Below, piece after piece: positions 2,954 to 11,831 of a stretch of 12,675 nt of DNA. Below the pieces are notes generated by a model. That model was given only the letters and a program-made list of their open reading frames with translations, was not told the DNA's origin and made no database searches. The DNA lies in the NCBI GenBank assembly GCA_964468425.1, contig CAYXSZ010000056.1, forward strand, positions 1-12,675, in the 5' to 3' direction. Numbering within the stretch: the first letter of the stretch is position 1; each line of letters begins with the position of its first letter. The DNA comes from Candidatus Woesearchaeota archaeon (GTDB lineage Archaea > Nanobdellota > Nanobdellia > Nanobdellales > Nanobdellaceae). A program made the position numbers and the translations under genes.

Positions 2954-3505
2954 TAATTCAGAGAAGTATATGATTTGCGGAGGTCTTGAGAACAAGATCT
3001 TGACATGATAATATTTTCCAGGTTCCAACTTATGTTCACATTGAATCAACTGAAAATCATCCGTTAGAATTTCAGATTCTGATAAAACTTTAGCTATATA
3101 CTCTCCAACATAATAAATATTGTGTTTGACCTCAAACGAGCTTCCCTCCTCGAAGCGATTAGAAATCAACGTCAAATATTTATTCCTAGTTACTTTTGGA
3201 AAAACTAATTTAACGAACGATCCTTCTTCCAAATCTTTATTAGTGATTAATCTCGCCTTCGCAGTTTCATCACAAACTTCATAAACCTTAAATCGACTTT
3301 CAACAAGCTTACGTAAGATTTTAACGTTTAACTCTTTGATAGGAAATCCAACGAATAGATCTACTATTCTTGGAGCTTCTTTGATCCCCAGTTCCTTCAA
3401 AACTAGTAACAACGCCGTTTCATCATCAATTAATCCATAAAATTCCTCTTTTTTCCTCTTAACAAGTTCATTAAAATTTTTTGATAAAAAAGAGATCACG
3501 AACAC
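2924..3505 (-). CDS. RPA-like OB-fold single-stranded-DNA-binding protein (tentative)
   Basis: The N-terminal text EEFYGLIDDETALLLVLKELGI resembles the conserved N-terminal helix region of archaeal RPAs. It is followed by an OB-fold-like segment, VYEVCDETAKARLIT...EEGSFVKL (compare the DETG..i..tlW pattern). The start is GTG at 3505; an alternative GTG at 3499 forms a GTGA overlap with the pilin stop. The 3' end overlaps the convergent ATPase gene by 30 nt. Confidence 0.5.
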   Translation of the reverse strand: MFVISFLSKNFNELVKRKKEEFYGLIDDETALLLVLKELGIKEAPRIVDLFVGFPIKELNVKILRKLVESRFKVYEVCDETAKARLITNKDLEEGSFVKLVFPKVTRNKYLTLISNRFEEGSSFEVKHNIYYVGEYIAKVLSESEILTDDFQLIQCEHKLEPGKYYHVKILFSRPPQIIYFSELSLLEVQEML

Positions 3506-3918
3506 TTATATGAGGATCCAGATCCGCTACACGTTTTGTAAGTCCATTGTTTAGTCGTAGGATCCCATACTTTGATATTAACGATACATTGTTCATTAAT
3601 AGGAGATTCCCAGCAGTGATATTTTTTGAAGGACCCATCTTTATTTAAGTCCCAATAAAACACCTGCTTTGCATAATCACTATTTTGAGCGTCTGATGTC
3701 GTTAGCGTCCCCGAAGCAGCTCTTTCTTTTAAATCGTTACAAAGTCTACTACAAATAGCCTTAGCGTTTTCTAAGTCTACATTGGACATTTGCGTGTTTA
3801 TCGCGGGAAACAGCTTACTGAGTCCTCCAGTGACAAATCCTACTATGAGAAGTAGTACTAACACCGCGAGCGATGCCAAGACGATTGTGTTTAGGGGAAG
3901 ACCCTGCGACCTACCCAT
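3496..3918 (-). CDS. Archaeal type IV pilin-like protein (class III signal peptide, Cys-rich globular domain)
   Basis: MGRSQG|LPLNTIVLASLAVLVLLLIVGFV is a short charged leader ending in G, followed by a long hydrophobic helix, as in prepilin-peptidase substrates. The C-terminal domain has 6 Cys in three pairs. The track ORF begins at a GTG at 3936. The ATG at 3918 is preferred because of its spacing from the TATA box at 3940-3946. Confidence 0.65.
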   Translation of the reverse strand: MGRSQGLPLNTIVLASLAVLVLLLIVGFVTGGLSKLFPAINTQMSNVDLENAKAICSRLCNDLKERAASGTLTTSDAQNSDYAKQVFYWDLNKDGSFKKYHCWESPINEQCIVNIKVWDPTTKQWTYKTCSGSGSSYKCS

Positions 3919-3939
3919 ATAAATTATTTTTCTCACGGA

Positions 3940-3968: not shown

Positions 3969-5099
3969 ATGAAATTCATTCATCTCGCGGATACTCACCT
4001 CGGATGTGAGATTCCAGTAGAATACCGTGAAATTCGGAAAAAAGACTTCGTAAACGCCTTTAAACAAGTGATAGAATTCGCAATAAATAACAAAGTGGAC
4101 TTCATCATACATTCTGGGGACTTGTTTGACGATTACTTCAGAATTTCGTCCGGAATTTTAGATGAAATCATAGAACTCTTCGTTCGTCTTAAAGACGAAG
4201 ACATTCCGTTTATAGCTATTAAGGGTAATCACGATGTTAAAGGACATCGCCAAAAGATGTTCGACATCTTAAAAAAACTCAAGCTCATTCAGGAAGCCAG
4301 TCCAAAGAATCCTATAGAAATCGGAAACTGCTCTATCTATGGAATCTCCGAGCCGGCAAATATCGGTGGAGAAGACTTGACAACGATTTACAAAACTCTT
4401 CTCCCAAAGATAAAAATAAGCTCCTCGAATTACACAATCTTTTTGTTCCATGGAGCTCCCGATATAATTTCTAAGGAATTTTATGATCCTAGAGTGGTTC
4501 CTACTGAGATCCTTCCGAAAAACGTTGATTACTACGCTTTAGGACACTTTCACACAAAGAAGCTTTTAAATCTCGAAAACAAGATATTTGCACTTCCCGG
4601 ATCAACTGAACATACAGAAATATCAAAGTTAGAAGAAAAAGACCAAAAATGTTTTTACTTGGTAAAAGACAACAAAGTACAAGAAGTTCCGATAAAAACA
4701 AGACCAATTTACATCTTGGAAAAAATTATAAGTACTGAAGAAGAGCTTTCAGAAATATTTAGTCACATTTCATCGAAGAGCAAAGAAACATTAATAAAAT
4801 TGAAACTTAGAACATCTCAAAAGCTATATCAAGTTGCTAAACTAAAGGTAGAACGCTTTATAGATTCTGGATTTCTCATAATAGACGATTTATGTGTAGA
4901 TTCAGAAGACATGTCCGTAGATTTTGAAGCGGAAAAAATAGCTCTCGAGGAAGCATTTTCCAAGCTAATAGTTTCCAACAAGGAAGAAATTTTGGAGTTA
5001 TTCAATAAAATAAAAGGATACTTGGATGACATATTTCAAGGAGACCAAAGCGATGTAGAAAGGCTAAGAGAAATATTGAGAAAAGAATTTGCGGCATGA
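3969..5099 (+). CDS. mre11: Mre11 DNA double-strand-break repair nuclease (calcineurin-like phosphoesterase)
   Basis: Phosphoesterase motifs are in order: MKFIHLADTHLG, HSGDLFD, KGNHD, FHG, GHFH. The track ORF starts at 3873, but that extension overlaps the pilin gene antisense, and motif I normally sits at the extreme N-terminus, so ATG 3969 is preferred. There is an ATGA overlap with rad50 at 5096-5099. Confidence 0.88.
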   Translation: MKFIHLADTHLGCEIPVEYREIRKKDFVNAFKQVIEFAINNKVDFIIHSGDLFDDYFRISSGILDEIIELFVRLKDEDIPFIAIKGNHDVKGHRQKMFDILKKLKLIQEASPKNPIEIGNCSIYGISEPANIGGEDLTTIYKTLLPKIKISSSNYTIFLFHGAPDIISKEFYDPRVVPTEILPKNVDYYALGHFHTKKLLNLENKIFALPGSTEHTEISKLEEKDQKCFYLVKDNKVQEVPIKTRPIYILEKIISTEEELSEIFSHISSKSKETLIKLKLRTSQKLYQVAKLKVERFIDSGFLIIDDLCVDSEDMSVDFEAEKIALEEAFSKLIVSNKEEILELFNKIKGYLDDIFQGDQSDVERLREILRKEFAA

Positions 5100-6184
5100 T
5101 CTGTTTGAAAGCTCTAAAACTAAAGAATTTCAAAGCACATAGAGATAAAGACATTAATTTTACCAACAAAAATCTTATTTTAGGTGAAAATGGAACAGGA
5201 AAAAGCTCTATATTCCATGGAATAATTTATACTCTATTTGGAAGTTCCGCTCTCAAATATATAGGAGCTTCTCGCGTTGCTAACCTCATTAGAGAGTTTT
5301 CTCATGAAAGTGAAGTAACATTACTTTTTGAAAAAAATGGAAAGACTTATGAGGTAAAAAGAATTCTACGAAGAGATGGAAATTCGTATGCTACTCTAAG
5401 CTGCGATGGAGTGGTGATAGCCAGTTCTCAAAGACTTGTAGACAAAAAGATAAAAGAACTTCTTAATATAAATCGTGAAAACAAAGTTCTTGACACTTTA
5501 TACATTCCACAGGGAGAATTAGGAAAATTTGTTCTCCAATCAGGAACTAAAAATTTAACTAATCTAATAGAGAAGCTGTTCGATCTAGATTATTATTCAA
5601 CGATGTTAGAGGCTATAAAAAGAGTTCTAAAGGATTTAGCGATAGAACGAGAAAAACTAACTACATTACTCTACCAAAAAGAAAGAGATCTATTAAAATT
5701 CAAAAACATTTACAAAGGACTTTCTATAGAGGATCTGGAGAAAATCGTAAACGAATATAACGAAATTTATGAAAAATATAATAACTTACTTGTTGCATAC
5801 AATAAATTAATGGCATTGCAAAGCAACATAGATTTTGAATTATTATCTAAGAAAAGTGTTATCGAAGATGATGTTAAAAAGCTCGAAACTAAGCTATTAA
5901 AAGTAGAAGAAGAGTTATCTAAGATTCGTGCAGAGATGGAGTCTTTACAAATAAAAACCATAGACAAAGAGCTTATACAAAAAGATTTAGAATCTTTAAC
6001 TTCGCTAAGACACCAACTGTCTGAAGAGCTGGCAAAACACGACATCGACGCTATAAAACTCGAAATCAGTAATTTAAAAAACTTAATTAAAATAATTGAA
6101 GATTTTAAGTCTATACACAATGTAGCCGACGAATACGAGTCGTTAGAAAAAGAGATAGAAAATCTAAAAAATAATATTCAGTAA
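5096..6184 (+). CDS. rad50: Rad50 ATPase, N-terminal half (Walker A lobe plus ascending coiled coil)
   Basis: Walker A GENGTGKSS, Q-loop IPQGEL, then a long K/E/L-rich heptad-like sequence. It ends at TAA 6182-6184, with no zinc hook, signature motif or Walker B. Confidence 0.85.
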   Translation: MICLKALKLKNFKAHRDKDINFTNKNLILGENGTGKSSIFHGIIYTLFGSSALKYIGASRVANLIREFSHESEVTLLFEKNGKTYEVKRILRRDGNSYATLSCDGVVIASSQRLVDKKIKELLNINRENKVLDTLYIPQGELGKFVLQSGTKNLTNLIEKLFDLDYYSTMLEAIKRVLKDLAIEREKLTTLLYQKERDLLKFKNIYKGLSIEDLEKIVNEYNEIYEKYNNLLVAYNKLMALQSNIDFELLSKKSVIEDDVKKLETKLLKVEEELSKIRAEMESLQIKTIDKELIQKDLESLTSLRHQLSEELAKHDIDAIKLEISNLKNLIKIIEDFKSIHNVADEYESLEKEIENLKNNIQ

Positions 6185-6216
6185 TTCTTGAAAAGATAAA
6201 GGAGTATAACCAAGTT

Positions 6217-7356
6217 TTGCAACTAATCAAAGAAAAGAAGTTCGAAAGATGTCCTGTGTGTGGAAAACTCTTATCTTCCAGCGAGATCTCCAACATTTAT
6301 GACAGTAAACAAAAAGAGCTGTCTGAACTAGAAACCCAAAAAGAAGAAGTATACAGAGACCTTAAAGAAAAAGAACGGGAGTTATACAAGCTAAAAGTGT
6401 TATACAATAAGTATATAGCTTTGAGGACTACTCTTATCGAGAACGGCATAGATTTAGATATCCTCGATAGTGAGTTACTCAAAAATCTAGAGGAATTAAG
6501 AAATAAAGAAGAGATCATCAATAAACATGAGTATTTGGAAAAAGTAGAGAGCGCAATAAATTACTTATTGAAAGCGAAGTTGCAGGATGAATACAAAGCT
6601 CTTCAAGACAAAGCTTCTTACCTTAGAAGAGAATTCTACTCTAAAAAATCGTTATTAGAAAGAATAAATATTATGTTGAAGAATCTAGAAGATTTTAACA
6701 GAATTCTCGAGGAAAGTGGATACAAATCTCTAGACGATTTGGAGCTAGAGCTAAACAAACTTAAAGAGAAATTAGAATCGTTTAAAGGAATAAATCCAAG
6801 AGAGATAGAGCTCTATAAAATACATCTAAAGGAAGTTGAAGATTTAAAAGAAAAGATACAGCGATTAAAGAGAAACTACTATCTTTTGTCCACTTTGCAA
6901 TCTGTTCTAGAAAAATTCATAGCAAACTATAGAAAAACCGTCGCAAAAAAACTTTCGTACACATTCAATTACTTCTTTAAGAAGCTTTATAAGTACCCAG
7001 ATATACGAGAAGTCAAGCTTGAAATAAAGTATGAGCGACAAGAATGGAAATTTTACGTGTATGTTTTGAAAAATATAGATGGAAAAGATGTGTGGAGGGA
7101 AATTAAGGAAGCTAATTTGAGTGGAGGTCAAATAAAGATCGTGGACTTAGCTTTTAGGCTATCTCTCGCAAGAATTTTGAATTTAAATTTTTATACTCTT
7201 TTACTTGATGAGCCGACGGAATCTCTGGACGAAAACGTGCGTTATTCGCTTGCAGAACTTCTGGATTCCTTGAAGGAGTATCAAATAATTTTATGCACGC
7301 ACGACGAGTTGTTTAAAGATAAAATGGAAGCTAACGTTATACTCCTAACTAGGTAA
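6217..7356 (+). CDS. rad50: Rad50 ATPase, C-terminal half (zinc hook, descending coiled coil, signature/Walker B lobe)
   Basis: Zinc hook CPVC at residues 12-15, a long coiled coil, signature LSGGQ, Walker B/D-loop LLLDEPTESLD and H-loop CTHD. The frame differs from the N-half. The only candidate start is TTG 6217, preceded by AAGGAG at 6199-6204. This frame is open from 6175. Confidence 0.8.
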   Translation: MQLIKEKKFERCPVCGKLLSSSEISNIYDSKQKELSELETQKEEVYRDLKEKERELYKLKVLYNKYIALRTTLIENGIDLDILDSELLKNLEELRNKEEIINKHEYLEKVESAINYLLKAKLQDEYKALQDKASYLRREFYSKKSLLERINIMLKNLEDFNRILEESGYKSLDDLELELNKLKEKLESFKGINPREIELYKIHLKEVEDLKEKIQRLKRNYYLLSTLQSVLEKFIANYRKTVAKKLSYTFNYFFKKLYKYPDIREVKLEIKYERQEWKFYVYVLKNIDGKDVWREIKEANLSGGQIKIVDLAFRLSLARILNLNFYTLLLDEPTESLDENVRYSLAELLDSLKEYQIILCTHDELFKDKMEANVILLTR

Positions 7357-8012: not shown

Positions 8013-8954
8013 TTATAGCGTCTTTTTAGAATCGATTTGCAAAAATCCCTTGACAAAAAGATCTATCGCTTCTTCTTTACTTAATCCACGCATTCTGAAG
8101 TATTCAATAACTTCTTCTGGTATTCTACCTACAGAAGCTTCGTGATAAAGATAAGAACTTTTATCCTTGATGTATATTTCTGGGATGGACTGTATTTTTC
8201 CATTTCCAAGTAAAATTCCATCGCACTTAGAGTACCCTTTAATGTTTTTACCAGATGCATCGAGCTTAAAATGAGTGCTTAAAAATCCTTCATATACAAC
8301 TGCTCTAGAAGATAAATTAACCGTAGAATTGTTTCCTTTGATATATGCAAAATTCTTTAATATAAATTCCCCGGAATTTAATTTTACCTCGGATTTTGAA
8401 AGTAGTTTGACGTTGTTATAAACTATATACTTTGTTTTTTTATTAACTTTTCCCCATCCATCTAGATTTATGTAAATATCCTCAAACTCTGAAAAATCTT
8501 CAAGATATACATAAGATCTGCTCAAAGTTTTGTTTTTAGGCACCCACCTGTGGGACTCTATAAATTTTACTTTTGCGCTTTGCTCAACCAGAATAAAGTT
8601 TCTCGCGCGATGTTCTCCAGCGGTTTTTCCTAGACAGGTTGTATAAACATTTATTTCGCTATTTTTTTCAGCGTAAACAATATTTACGACGTTCTGTGAA
8701 GTGCTGTCGATGAAGAAGCAGGTTTTGACAGGTATAGATACCTTTGCTCCCTCCTTTACGTGCAGGAAGAAACCTCCATCTGCTTTTGAGACTATCTTCT
8801 TAATTTTCAAACTTCCAAAAACTTTAGGAAAACTTTTAGCGAGCTTTATAGAAAATATTTCTATTTGGTCTGCTTTTAGCTCCCTCACAAACTCTTCCTT
8901 GTTGTATAGAATGTAATCGGATCTCTCAATAGACTTGAGATGATCTCTCTTCAT
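8013..8954 (-). CDS. sufB: SufB/SufD-family Fe-S cluster scaffold protein (short, 313 aa; SufB-like HEA motif)
   Basis: The C-terminal text YHEASVGRIPEEVIEYFRMRGLSKEEAIDLFVKGF matches the conserved SufB/D C-terminal helix region, and HEA is the SufB-type version. The beta-helix-like repetitive middle also fits. It is much shorter than typical SufB. Confidence 0.75.
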   Translation of the reverse strand: MKRDHLKSIERSDYILYNKEEFVRELKADQIEIFSIKLAKSFPKVFGSLKIKKIVSKADGGFFLHVKEGAKVSIPVKTCFFIDSTSQNVVNIVYAEKNSEINVYTTCLGKTAGEHRARNFILVEQSAKVKFIESHRWVPKNKTLSRSYVYLEDFSEFEDIYINLDGWGKVNKKTKYIVYNNVKLLSKSEVKLNSGEFILKNFAYIKGNNSTVNLSSRAVVYEGFLSTHFKLDASGKNIKGYSKCDGILLGNGKIQSIPEIYIKDKSSYLYHEASVGRIPEEVIEYFRMRGLSKEEAIDLFVKGFLQIDSKKTL

Positions 8955-9190
8955 TTTTGTTGTGAAATAACATAGGAAAAAGTATTCTTGAGATTTGTTT
9001 CCTTCGCTATGATATTCTCAATACAATCGCTAATTAAAATGCTTTCGCCAAGTAGCTCAATATCTTTTTTATTTTGTAAATAGAGATTGACCGCAAAAAC
9101 TACCTCATTTTTGATTTTGAAGTGCCTGAAAACTTCGATCGCATCCAGCATAAATAATCCTTGTCTGAAAATTTTAAGATTTATTTTCAT
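8951..9190 (-). CDS. Small hypothetical protein, first gene of the suf operon (start uncertain: 9190 or 9151)
   Basis: The stop TGA overlaps the sufB-like ATG (ATGA at 8951-8954), which suggests translational coupling. No family was recognised. The track start at 9265 would overlap the divergent ThiS-like gene, so the internal ATGs at 9190 (79 aa) or 9151 (66 aa) are more plausible. Confidence 0.4.
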   Translation of the reverse strand: MKINLKIFRQGLFMLDAIEVFRHFKIKNEVVFAVNLYLQNKKDIELLGESILISDCIENIIAKETNLKNTFSYVISQQK

Positions 9191-9200
9191 CAATAAATTG

Positions 9201-9407
9201 ATGGTTAAGGTTAAAGTGTTTATCGAGAGATGCGAAGAAGAAAAAGAAGTAGAATTTGATGGCAAAACAGTTAAAGATCTTTTGAATTACTTAAAAATCG
9301 AGGCAAGTAGATGTGTAGTCGTTAAAAACGGAGAAGTGGTAGTGGAAGACGAGGAGTTAAATGACGGCGACTATGTAAAAATTTTAGACGTAGTTTCAGG
9401 AGGGTGA
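9201..9407 (+). CDS. ThiS/MoaD/SAMP-like beta-grasp sulfur-carrier or ubiquitin-like protein ending in Gly-Gly
   Basis: The 68 aa sequence is MVKVKVFIE...FDGKTVKDLL...NDGDYVKILDVVSGG*. Its size, the DGD.V.IL motif and the C-terminal GG are typical of ThiS/MoaD. ATG 9201 is preferred over the track start at 9087, whose extension is low-quality and antisense to the neighbouring ORF. The stop overlaps the pyrH GTG (GTGA at 9404-9407). Confidence 0.75.
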   Translation: MVKVKVFIERCEEEKEVEFDGKTVKDLLNYLKIEASRCVVVKNGEVVVEDEELNDGDYVKILDVVSGG

Positions 9408-10048: not shown

Positions 10049-10075
10049 GCTAAAAATAAAACAATAATAATTAAA

Positions 10076-10115
10076 GTCGTTAGCATATAAATTCTAATTT
10101 GCTAGAATTAACGAC
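10076..10115. repeat. Nested imperfect inverted repeat downstream of pyrH
   Basis: The outer arms GTCGTT (10076-10081) and AACGAC (10110-10115) enclose the inner arms AATTCTA (10090-10096) and TAGAATT (10103-10109), which surround a 6-nt loop. The related perfect palindrome ATTCTAGAAT lies at 10151-10160. Confidence 0.5.
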
Positions 10116-10165
10116 AATAAAGGTATATGAGAATTGGGTGTGATCAAGATATTCTAGAATGAACG

Positions 10166-10618
10166 CTAATTTTTTTGATTGCCATTTTCTTCAAGACGCT
10201 CTCTGACATGAGGACTTAAATAACCATCATTTGTCCATACCTCATTCTCAAACTTATTACAACACTTTAAATATAGAGTTGAGAGATTTTGCTCTGGATA
10301 GGTGATCTTTGACAAAGGCAGATGTTGTATTTTTATTCTGTTAAATTGAGCTGTGACTCGACGATTGGAGCTATTCACAGTCTACAATTACAGGTTCAAA
10401 TCTTCGCCAGCCCATAAAACATTTTTATTGGATTACCACTTATGATATTCTGTACAAGTTCTAAACCCTTGGTAAATCAAACATAATCTAAAATCGTAGT
10501 TAATGGCATACTCACAAGGCAATCCTATTACTTTACACACTGCTAGCTTATCCCTACGATAAGTATCCACAGAAGACGATTCTCTAAAGTTCTCGAGAAT
10601 AAAGTTAGAGACGTGCAA
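10166..10618 (-). pseudogene. Candidate decayed gene: two same-frame ORFs separated by three in-frame stop codons; family unknown
   Basis: The track ORFs 10433-10618 and 10166-10378 share one minus-strand frame. They are separated only by TAA (10433-10435), TAA (10388-10390) and TAG (10382-10384). Neither has an ATG start (TTG and GTG). No motif was recognised. Confidence 0.3.
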
Positions 10619-10827
10619 GATTTGATGTATGACTAAATCTTTTCGTATAGATGATGCTTTACACCACCTTTACCATCCATTTGAGCTTCCTCGGAATGTG
10701 CTAGCGATTAGATTCGGATATTTTCGAAACAATCGCTCGCTTTACATCGTAGTTTTTGAGATCTTCTACATTAATATCGCAAAACAATGTAAGGAAGAAT
10801 TTTATCCATAAAGCATTTATTCCCAAC

Positions 10828-10842
10828 AAAAAGGTTTTTAAT
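10828..10842 (+). promoter_or_regulatory. BRE/TATA-like promoter of tRNA-Asp (AAAAAGG TTTTTAAT)
   Basis: A purine-rich AAAAAGG (10828-10834) directly precedes TTTTTAAT (10835-10842). The tRNA's first nucleotide, G at 10868, lies 26 nt after the last TATA base. Confidence 0.5.
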
Positions 10843-10867
10843 GATTAGTCCACACCTAGATCTATAC

Positions 10868-10939
10868 GCCCCGGTAGTGTAGCGGCCAGCATGCGGGACT
10901 GTCGATCCCGTGACCCGGGTTCGAATCCCGGCCGGGGCG
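10868..10939 (+). tRNA. tRNA-Asp: tRNA-Asp (anticodon GUC), 72 nt, no encoded CCA
   Basis: Folded by hand. The acceptor stem GCCCCGG/CCGGGGC has 7 perfect pairs. The D arm is GUGU-AGCGGCCA-GCAU. The anticodon arm is CGGGA-CUGUCGA-UCCCG with anticodon GUC. The variable loop is UGAC, the T arm is CCGGG-UUCGAAU-CCCGG, and the discriminator is G. It is very GC-rich relative to its flanks. Confidence 0.93.
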
Positions 10940-10940
10940 C

Positions 10941-11831
10941 TTAAGCTTCAAATGGATTCATCGCTTTTAGCAAAAATACGAACATAAGAGTGGCAGCTGG
11001 GAGAAACACAACTACAATAAGTAATTGTATCTGGGACATCATTTTGCTTCCACCACCCATAATAGATCCCATAATGGTTGTAAGGATCATTACGAAAACT
11101 ACTCCAACAATAATTAATGTAATATAGAGTTCGAGGATAACTTGCATAACGTTTGTATATTCAACAAGTTTTCTTTTGAACTCCTGAATATATTGACGAG
11201 CTTTTTCGTAGAGATACGACTCCATATCTCCTCCCTCAACGAGAATTGATCTTAAACCTTCTAAAAGTTCTCTCCACTCTCTAGAGGGACTTTGGCTAGC
11301 TTTCACGTGTAAAGCAGTTGGAAGGTCTAAACCAAGTCCTTTAACATACCTTACAATATCTTGAGCATCCTTAGATATTTCAGAGAACTCCTTATACTTT
11401 GCAAGGAGAGTAAACAAAGACAAGGGATTCGCTCCACTTGTAGATATAGTTGCCATGTATATAGTCGCTAAATAAAGAGAGTTATCGATTTTTTTTCCAC
11501 GAGCGGAAATCATTAAGCTTGGATAAGCTCTGAAAAACATAATACCCATTACGAATCCGATCAGTCCTCCAACCAATGCGAGAACAATTCCAACGAAGAT
11601 TATTTTAGGGTTTTTCATTAACATAGTCAAAGCAAGACCGACAGCAAAACCCATAAATGCAAAAATAACCGAGATTGCAATTGAGTAAAAGAAAGCTTCG
11701 CCAACGAACTCCCTTAAATCTTTATTAATTCCAGCTTTTTTGAGTATGGGTTCTACATCTCGGAAAAATGGAAGGAAAATAGGTTCAATTATTGGTTTAA
11801 ATGCGTTGTAAACTTTAAGCCCAAAACCCAT
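10941..11831 (-). CDS. FlaJ/ArlJ-TadC-type type IV filament platform membrane protein, single T2SSF-like domain (resembles the C-terminal half of FlaJ)
   Basis: It is a polytopic membrane protein with one cytoplasmic helical domain: NSLYLATIYMATISTSGANP...LDLPTALHVKASQSPSREWRELLEGLRSILVEGGDMESYL. Hydrophobic segments flank this domain. The stop codon abuts the tRNA-Asp 3' end (1 nt gap). Confidence 0.75.
   Translation of the reverse strand: MGFGLKVYNAFKPIIEPIFLPFFRDVEPILKKAGINKDLREFVGEAFFYSIAISVIFAFMGFAVGLALTMLMKNPKIIFVGIVLALVGGLIGFVMGIMFFRAYPSLMISARGKKIDNSLYLATIYMATISTSGANPLSLFTLLAKYKEFSEISKDAQDIVRYVKGLGLDLPTALHVKASQSPSREWRELLEGLRSILVEGGDMESYLYEKARQYIQEFKRKLVEYTNVMQVILELYITLIIVGVVFVMILTTIMGSIMGGGSKMMSQIQLLIVVVFLPAATLMFVFLLKAMNPFEA

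Follow-up and report, generated by a model that had tools for sequence, protein, structure and literature searches.

A frameshift of one base, seen on just one draft contig, gives a Nanoarchaeote rad50 the appearance of a split gene

The analysis of contig CAYXSZ010000056.1 from a Candidatus Woesearchaeota archaeon (the window, which is the entire 12,675-nucleotide (nt) NCBI draft contig, roughly 35% GC, with positions given here as forward-strand coordinates) reveals a rad50 gene, directly downstream of mre11, that falls into two reading frames just before its zinc hook. The break comes from the deletion of one base, seen in the window contig alone, and the relatives are intact. As judged from the sequences compared, the conserved natural-split reading is refuted and the break is a frameshift, not an evolved gene architecture. 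We read the deletion as a real and recent strain-level mutation, which would make this rad50 a young loss-of-function allele, with a probability of roughly 0.5. Both that the deletion is present in the organism, and not just in the consensus, and that function is abolished are points that we infer.

The two parts of the gene and their motifs are listed in Table 1. Frame A is native through codon 359 and then adds three out-of-frame codons (N-I-Q) and a TAA; its Walker A motif and Q-loop are followed by the ascending coiled coil. Frame B opens at 6175, directly after an in-frame TAA (6172-6174), shares 10 nt (6175-6184) with frame A, and carries the descending coiled coil after the CPVC hook. 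The original prediction had described this same arrangement, placing Walker A, the Q-loop and the ascending coil in an N-half at 5096-6184, the hook (residues 12-15), descending coil, LSGGQ, Walker B and H-loop in a C-half, a 10-nt overlap between the frames from the opening of frame B at 6175, and a sole C-half start at TTG 6217 with AAGGAG 12 nt upstream; the open reading frames (ORFs), their translations, the window sequence and the TAA codons at 6172-6174 and 6182-6184 bear it out.

An exhaustive HMMER search with the N-half retrieved P0010, a protein of 753 amino acids (aa) that is 99% identical over residues 1-360 and runs from frame-A sequence straight into the C-half (...ENLKNKYSVILEK...), its sequence around the junction (...ENLKNKYSVILEKIKEYNQVLQLIKEKKFERCPVCGK...) being window frame A joined to frame B. 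A word-indexed search with the same N-half gave no matches, and the exhaustive search was needed to reach P0010. Four contigs, each from a different sample, encode this protein or one of two near-identical variants of 753 aa (L083, JGI 3300041922; L084, ENA ERZ940667, a hydrothermal-vent metagenome; L085, JGI 3300007771; and L091, JGI 3300028838), all with an intact 753-aa Rad50, 99.3-99.6% DNA identity to the window and the same flanking sequence. The multiple alignment reads AATAAATATTC in 4/4 of these conspecific contigs versus AATAATATTC in the window, which is missing the third A of an AAA codon; the base belongs between 6174 and 6175. Restoring this one A gives a 753-codon ORF without an internal stop, and the protein so restored aligns gap-free across the junction with all relatives. 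In a 15-billion-protein collection, the two half-proteins are on record solely from the window contig. An exact-pattern scan of the metagenome_contigs collection for the two junction forms gave no hits and has no bearing on this, as the samples concerned are absent from it; the pattern itself matches the window, L083, L084, L085 and L091. Of the two readings offered originally, the second, a 1-nt indel marking either a recent pseudogene or an assembly error, thus gains support from the four conspecific contigs with AAA; the indel itself stands, and its position, first put within about 6175-6181, is refined to the left edge of that interval.

This observation is further strengthened by a family survey in which one genome per species was scanned, yielding 19 Nanoarchaeota loci (L003-L021) that include Nanopusillus acidilobi, Nanobdella aerobiophila, Nanobsidianus stetteri, Nanoclepta minutus, strain YN1 and several metagenome-assembled genomes. 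In all 19, rad50 is a single ORF of 751-760 aa from Met to stop, with Walker A, the CxxC hook and the signature motif in one frame, and it directly follows mre11 in the same orientation, as in the window; Mre11 measures 376-381 aa across these genomes and the conspecific contigs. A conserved break is therefore absent from 4/4 conspecific contigs and 19/19 related genomes. The other reading offered originally, a natural split at the apex of the coiled coil, falls on exactly this ground, given that relatives at 99.3-99.6% identity are uninterrupted, with the same flanks plus one A, and that 19/19 of the wider family are intact. Three further candidates for a conserved split were considered and rejected: P0001 (398 aa), which covers just the C-half, is truncated, as it starts at the first base of its contig; P0016 (370 aa), which covers just the N-half, is cut off by the end of its contig; and P0002, on the 1.8-kb contig L002, has a frame change at a site that is not homologous to the window's break, about 40 codons ahead of the hook and 50 nt from the contig end. 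The last of these is an independent frame change (L002, 1-60) in the rad50 of another Nanoarchaeote (about 45% identical), which is closest to Nanoclepta; it is probably an end-of-contig error.

That the pieces together belong to archaeal Rad50 is supported by Pfam, NCBIfam and PDB searches, which returned SMC_N, AAA_23, SbcC_Walker_B, Rad50_zn_hook and archaeal Rad50 models, with Rad50 structures as the top PDB matches. The split ABC-type ATPase head is complete, with Walker A and the Q-loop N-terminal and the signature motif, Walker B, D-loop and H-loop C-terminal. The Pfam Rad50_zn_hook match (E = 1.3e-4 to 5.7e-4, 20-22 bits, slightly below the 24.3-bit cutoff) spans intact residues 367-415, beginning at frame-B residue 7, and the hook motif is kept as CP[VIL]C in 19/19 relatives. 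Taken singly, the halves score below the NCBIfam Rad50 equivalog cutoffs (54-101 bits versus 700-1087), which reflects the divergence of Nanoarchaeota and the use of half-protein queries and does not contradict the motifs and context. By these matches, the motif set and the repaired 753-codon ORF, the gene pair is assigned to the archaeal Rad50 family, in the short form of about 750 aa typical of Nanopusillaceae-like Nanoarchaeota, and the original view that the halves make up one complete Rad50 holds.

In its motifs and its mid-length CxxC hook, the protein resembles Rad50 of Methanocaldococcus jannaschii and Pyrococcus furiosus (PDB 5f3w, 3aux, 1f2t/1ii8), and, as for archaeal Rad50 of the Mre11-Rad50 complex, its gene lies directly downstream of mre11 and overlaps it (by 4 nt, the mre11 stop ending at 5099 and the rad50 ATG starting at 5096). 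It differs from that complex's Rad50 in being interrupted, on the window contig, by a one-base deletion, and from the model archaeal proteins (about 880-900 aa) in its length of 753 aa, within the 751-760 aa of Nanopusillaceae-type relatives. This short length, in the window as in L003-L021, implies shorter coiled-coil arms than in the model archaea. A resemblance was also seen to arcadin-4 (Rkd4), a Rad50-like coiled-coil ATPase of Thermoproteales, whose model is the best single NCBIfam match for the C-half (E = 1.6e-23) and, at 747 positions, is near the window Rad50 in length. Arcadin-4 identity was rejected on the score (83 bits versus a cutoff of 860), the preference of the N-half for Rad50 models, the coupling to mre11 and the Rad50 zinc hook; the likeness of the C-half is a matter of common Rad50/SMC ancestry, not membership. 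With regard to mre11 itself, its ORF is listed from 3873, with 32 codons open upstream of the conserved start MKFIH..DTHLG (Met33, 3969); by the homologues and the conspecific gene calls (376 aa), which begin at 3969, the 408-aa ORF is an over-extension.

The sequence around the break likewise speaks against an evolved division of the gene. No evolved start signal for the second half was found in the window, where the sole start, TTG, is Leu375 and AAGGAG encodes a Lys-Glu pair of the intact gene; both are ordinary codons of that gene and were thus not selected as a restart signal. A restart at this TTG would omit intact residues 360-374 (15 residues), and with them the first 8 residues that match the Pfam zinc-hook model. 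The window's real gene starts are not preceded by any Shine-Dalgarno pattern. Several of the window's gene starts have, by eye, a TATA-like box about 25-30 nt upstream.

Split genes are familiar from Nanoarchaeum equitans, where they include those for reverse gyrase, alanyl-tRNA synthetase and DNA polymerase B. In these cases each half is a gene in its own right, with its own start and usually far from its partner, and both halves are stably maintained. The window locus is like them in its Nanoarchaeote host and in the division of a protein between functional modules, and unlike them in that its pieces are contiguous, overlap by 10 nt and stand one base from an intact gene, with the break found in no relative examined. 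It is like the frameshifted genes ordinarily met in draft genomes, whether young pseudogenes or homopolymer consensus errors, with which it shares a single one-base homopolymer indel, adjacent frames, colinear pieces and very close relatives that are intact. Against that background nothing is distinctive here, the sole notable point being that the break falls 25 codons before the zinc hook. The event is a commonplace frameshift of one base in a draft contig, and the case is a caution: a rad50 that looks neatly divided at the zinc hook proves to carry a frameshift of one base, found on just one draft contig, which makes the locus unsuitable as an example of a natural split gene or as evidence for a split Rad50 in Nanoarchaeota.

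In the reading that we favour, one A would have been lost from the AAA codon for Lys360 in a marine-vent Nanoarchaeote whose rad50 is otherwise normal, in one piece and coupled to mre11. The loss would shift the frame by one base, translation would stop three codons on, at 6184, and the hook, descending coil, signature motif, Walker B and H-loop would be left in the -1 frame. On its own, the 362-aa N-fragment would have only one half of the ABC ATPase, and there is no sign that the C-half is efficiently restarted. If the deletion is real, it would be a minor data point that a reduced-genome symbiont strain can lose Rad50 while the population keeps the gene under strong purifying selection.

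Two hints lead us to lean slightly toward a real recent allele over an error, namely that rad50 is the sole broken gene on the contig and that its unique changes stand at 4:0. Regarding the first, the other contig genes equal their conspecific counterparts in length (FlaI 606, Mre11 376, SufC 209, SufBD 313, FlaJ 296 and UMP kinase 214 aa), and window-unique differences number zero in the first 3,453 nt; with all other genes full length, the assembly is not generally riddled with indels. Regarding the second, the window-unique substitutions in rad50 comprise 4 non-synonymous (T46, I158, I456 and N464) and 0 synonymous changes, versus 4 non-synonymous and 14 synonymous singletons in the rad50 of the other four strains (Fisher p = 0.0096), and the Rad50 proteins of L083 and L084 are identical despite 13 silent differences. 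This pattern suggests relaxed constraint on rad50 in the window lineage, and one miscalled base would not produce it.

Several points weigh against this reading. Both window-unique indels are one-base homopolymer contractions (A3 to A2 in rad50 and T6 to T5 upstream of mre11), and such contractions are typical errors of several sequencing platforms. The 4:0 ratio is drawn from few changes; singletons in L085, an intact strain, likewise stand at 3 non-synonymous to 1 synonymous; the four residues changed in the window lie at family-variable positions; and the adjoining mre11 shows no relaxation (0 non-synonymous and 1 synonymous unique change). The catalytic motifs are all intact in both halves, and the deletion, if real, would thus be very young. 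Moreover, the choice between a real allele and a consensus error was made on assembled sequences.

The foremost alternative is a sequencing or assembly artefact, in which rad50 is unbroken (AAA) in the organism and one base of a short homopolymer was missed in the draft consensus; we consider this a serious possibility, if a less probable one. It would account for frameshifted halves that are on record from only one draft contig, beside four conspecific contigs and 19 related genomes that are all intact, and for two halves that keep every catalytic motif and acquire no further stops. A second unique one-base contraction on the same contig, the T5 run at 3922-3926, is in line with it; this site, 8 nt before the Met start (3918, minus strand) of a pilin-like gene, falls in a short divergent promoter region shared with mre11. 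The unrelated rad50 frameshift on metagenome contig L002, located 50 nt from a contig end, where assemblies are error-prone, offers a further parallel. A run of only three A, however, is short for a homopolymer error, the remaining genes of the contig are full length, with 3.4 kb free of any unique difference, and four unique non-synonymous substitutions concentrated in rad50 are left unexplained by a single indel miscall.

A functional two-piece protein is unlikely. Here the deletion would be real, the C-half would be restarted at TTG 6217, and the antiparallel coiled coil would bring the halves back together, as happens with engineered N+C Rad50 constructs; such a split would be new and tolerated, not conserved. 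The halves show no further disruption, each with a complete motif set, and solved structures of the Rad50 catalytic domain do have separate N and C chains (1f2t A/B, 1ii8 A/B and 1us8 A/B); AAGGAG is also present 12 nt before the TTG. Both of these elements nevertheless pre-exist as codons, in a window whose real starts are without Shine-Dalgarno motifs, and the restart would drop the 15 hook-adjacent residues with the beginning of the zinc-hook match. In addition, the break is conserved nowhere examined, and unique changes that are all non-synonymous suggest relaxed rather than maintained constraint. The full claim, that one marine-vent Nanoarchaeote strain makes a working Rad50 from residues 1-359 and a TTG 6217 restart, is more doubtful still; if true, such a two-polypeptide Rad50 would be an SMC-class split at the hook caught at its origin and would show how split genes of the N. 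equitans type begin.

A bypass of the break that would yield full-length Rad50, whether through programmed -1 ribosomal frameshifting or through transcriptional slippage among the A residues, is highly improbable. A slippery-type heptamer (A_AAA_AAT, 6166-6172, frame A) does lie just upstream, yet slipping back one base on it, or adding one A to the A6 run, would directly hit the in-frame TAA at 6172-6174. By this the reading is effectively refuted, and a programmed frameshift or slippage gene was rejected. Only a slip within 6175-6181 (TATTCAG) could rescue the frame, and that stretch is not slippery; the conspecific genes need no recoding.

Table 1. Coordinates of rad50, its motifs and other features of the window
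Feature	Position	Strand	Description
Pilin-like / small secreted protein	3496-3918	-	class-III-signal-like N-terminus (MGRSQGLPLNTIVLASLAVLVLLL)
T5 run	3922-3926		non-coding; T5 here versus T6 in three conspecific contigs; second window-unique one-base contraction
mre11	3969-5099	+	376 aa; Metallophos and NCBIfam Mre11 models; identical 376-aa protein in JGI and ENA
rad50 5' part, frame A	5096-6184	+	362 aa; ATG start; TAA stop 6182-6184
Walker A GENGTGKS	5183-5206	+	rad50 residues 30-37
Q-loop IPQGEL	5504-5521	+	from rad50 residue 137
Frameshift site	6173-6174	+	AA here versus AAA (Lys360) in four conspecific contigs
rad50 3' part, frame B	6175-7356	+	intact residues 361-753; stop 7354-7356
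AAGGAG	6199-6204	+	12 nt upstream of TTG 6217; codons Lys369-Glu370 of intact rad50
TTG	6217-6219	+	sole ATG/GTG/TTG start in frame B before the hook; codon Leu375 of intact rad50
Zinc hook CPVC	6250-6261	+	residues 12-15 of the TTG-started C-half; residue 386 of 753 in the repaired protein
Signature motif LSGGQ	7117-7131	+	repaired residue 675
Walker B LLLDEPT	7198-7218	+	repaired residue 702
H-loop CTHD	7294-7305	+	repaired residue 734
ThiS/SAMP-like gene	9201-9407		intact, 68 aa; A4 run (indel at 9260-9263)
tRNA-Asp	10868-10940		
FlaJ-like gene	10941-11831	-	296 aa; single T2SSF domain
FlaJ-like gene	11869 to beyond 12675	+	at least 269 aa; single T2SSF domain

Among the neighbouring genes, the pilin-like gene contains a hypervariable patch, especially at 3622-3649, between otherwise 99%-identical strains (DGSFKKY here versus DGNPETY in L085), and its product may be a surface protein under diversifying selection. 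The ThiS/SAMP-like gene has an A5 run in L092, where the call is shortened to 49 aa (P0179), and this 49-aa form comes from both JGI and ENA assemblies. The A4/A5 variant, within the same population, may reflect real indel variation and was counted toward a real rad50 allele. A frameshift joining SufBD (8013-8954) to the ORF at 8951-9265 was considered and rejected, given that SufBD is 313 aa in four of four cluster members.

Directly upstream of tRNA-Asp, the stretch at 10049-10867 (about 820 nt) contains no convincing ORF and gave no Rfam match; the window has one extra T versus L092 in a T-run at about 10170. Beyond the tRNA lie two divergent FlaJ-like genes, an arrangement that is the same in four conspecific contigs (L093-L096). 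Platform proteins of the archaellum and of pili are usually one protein with two T2SSF domains, and the pair may, by analogy with TadB/TadC, constitute a genuinely two-gene platform.

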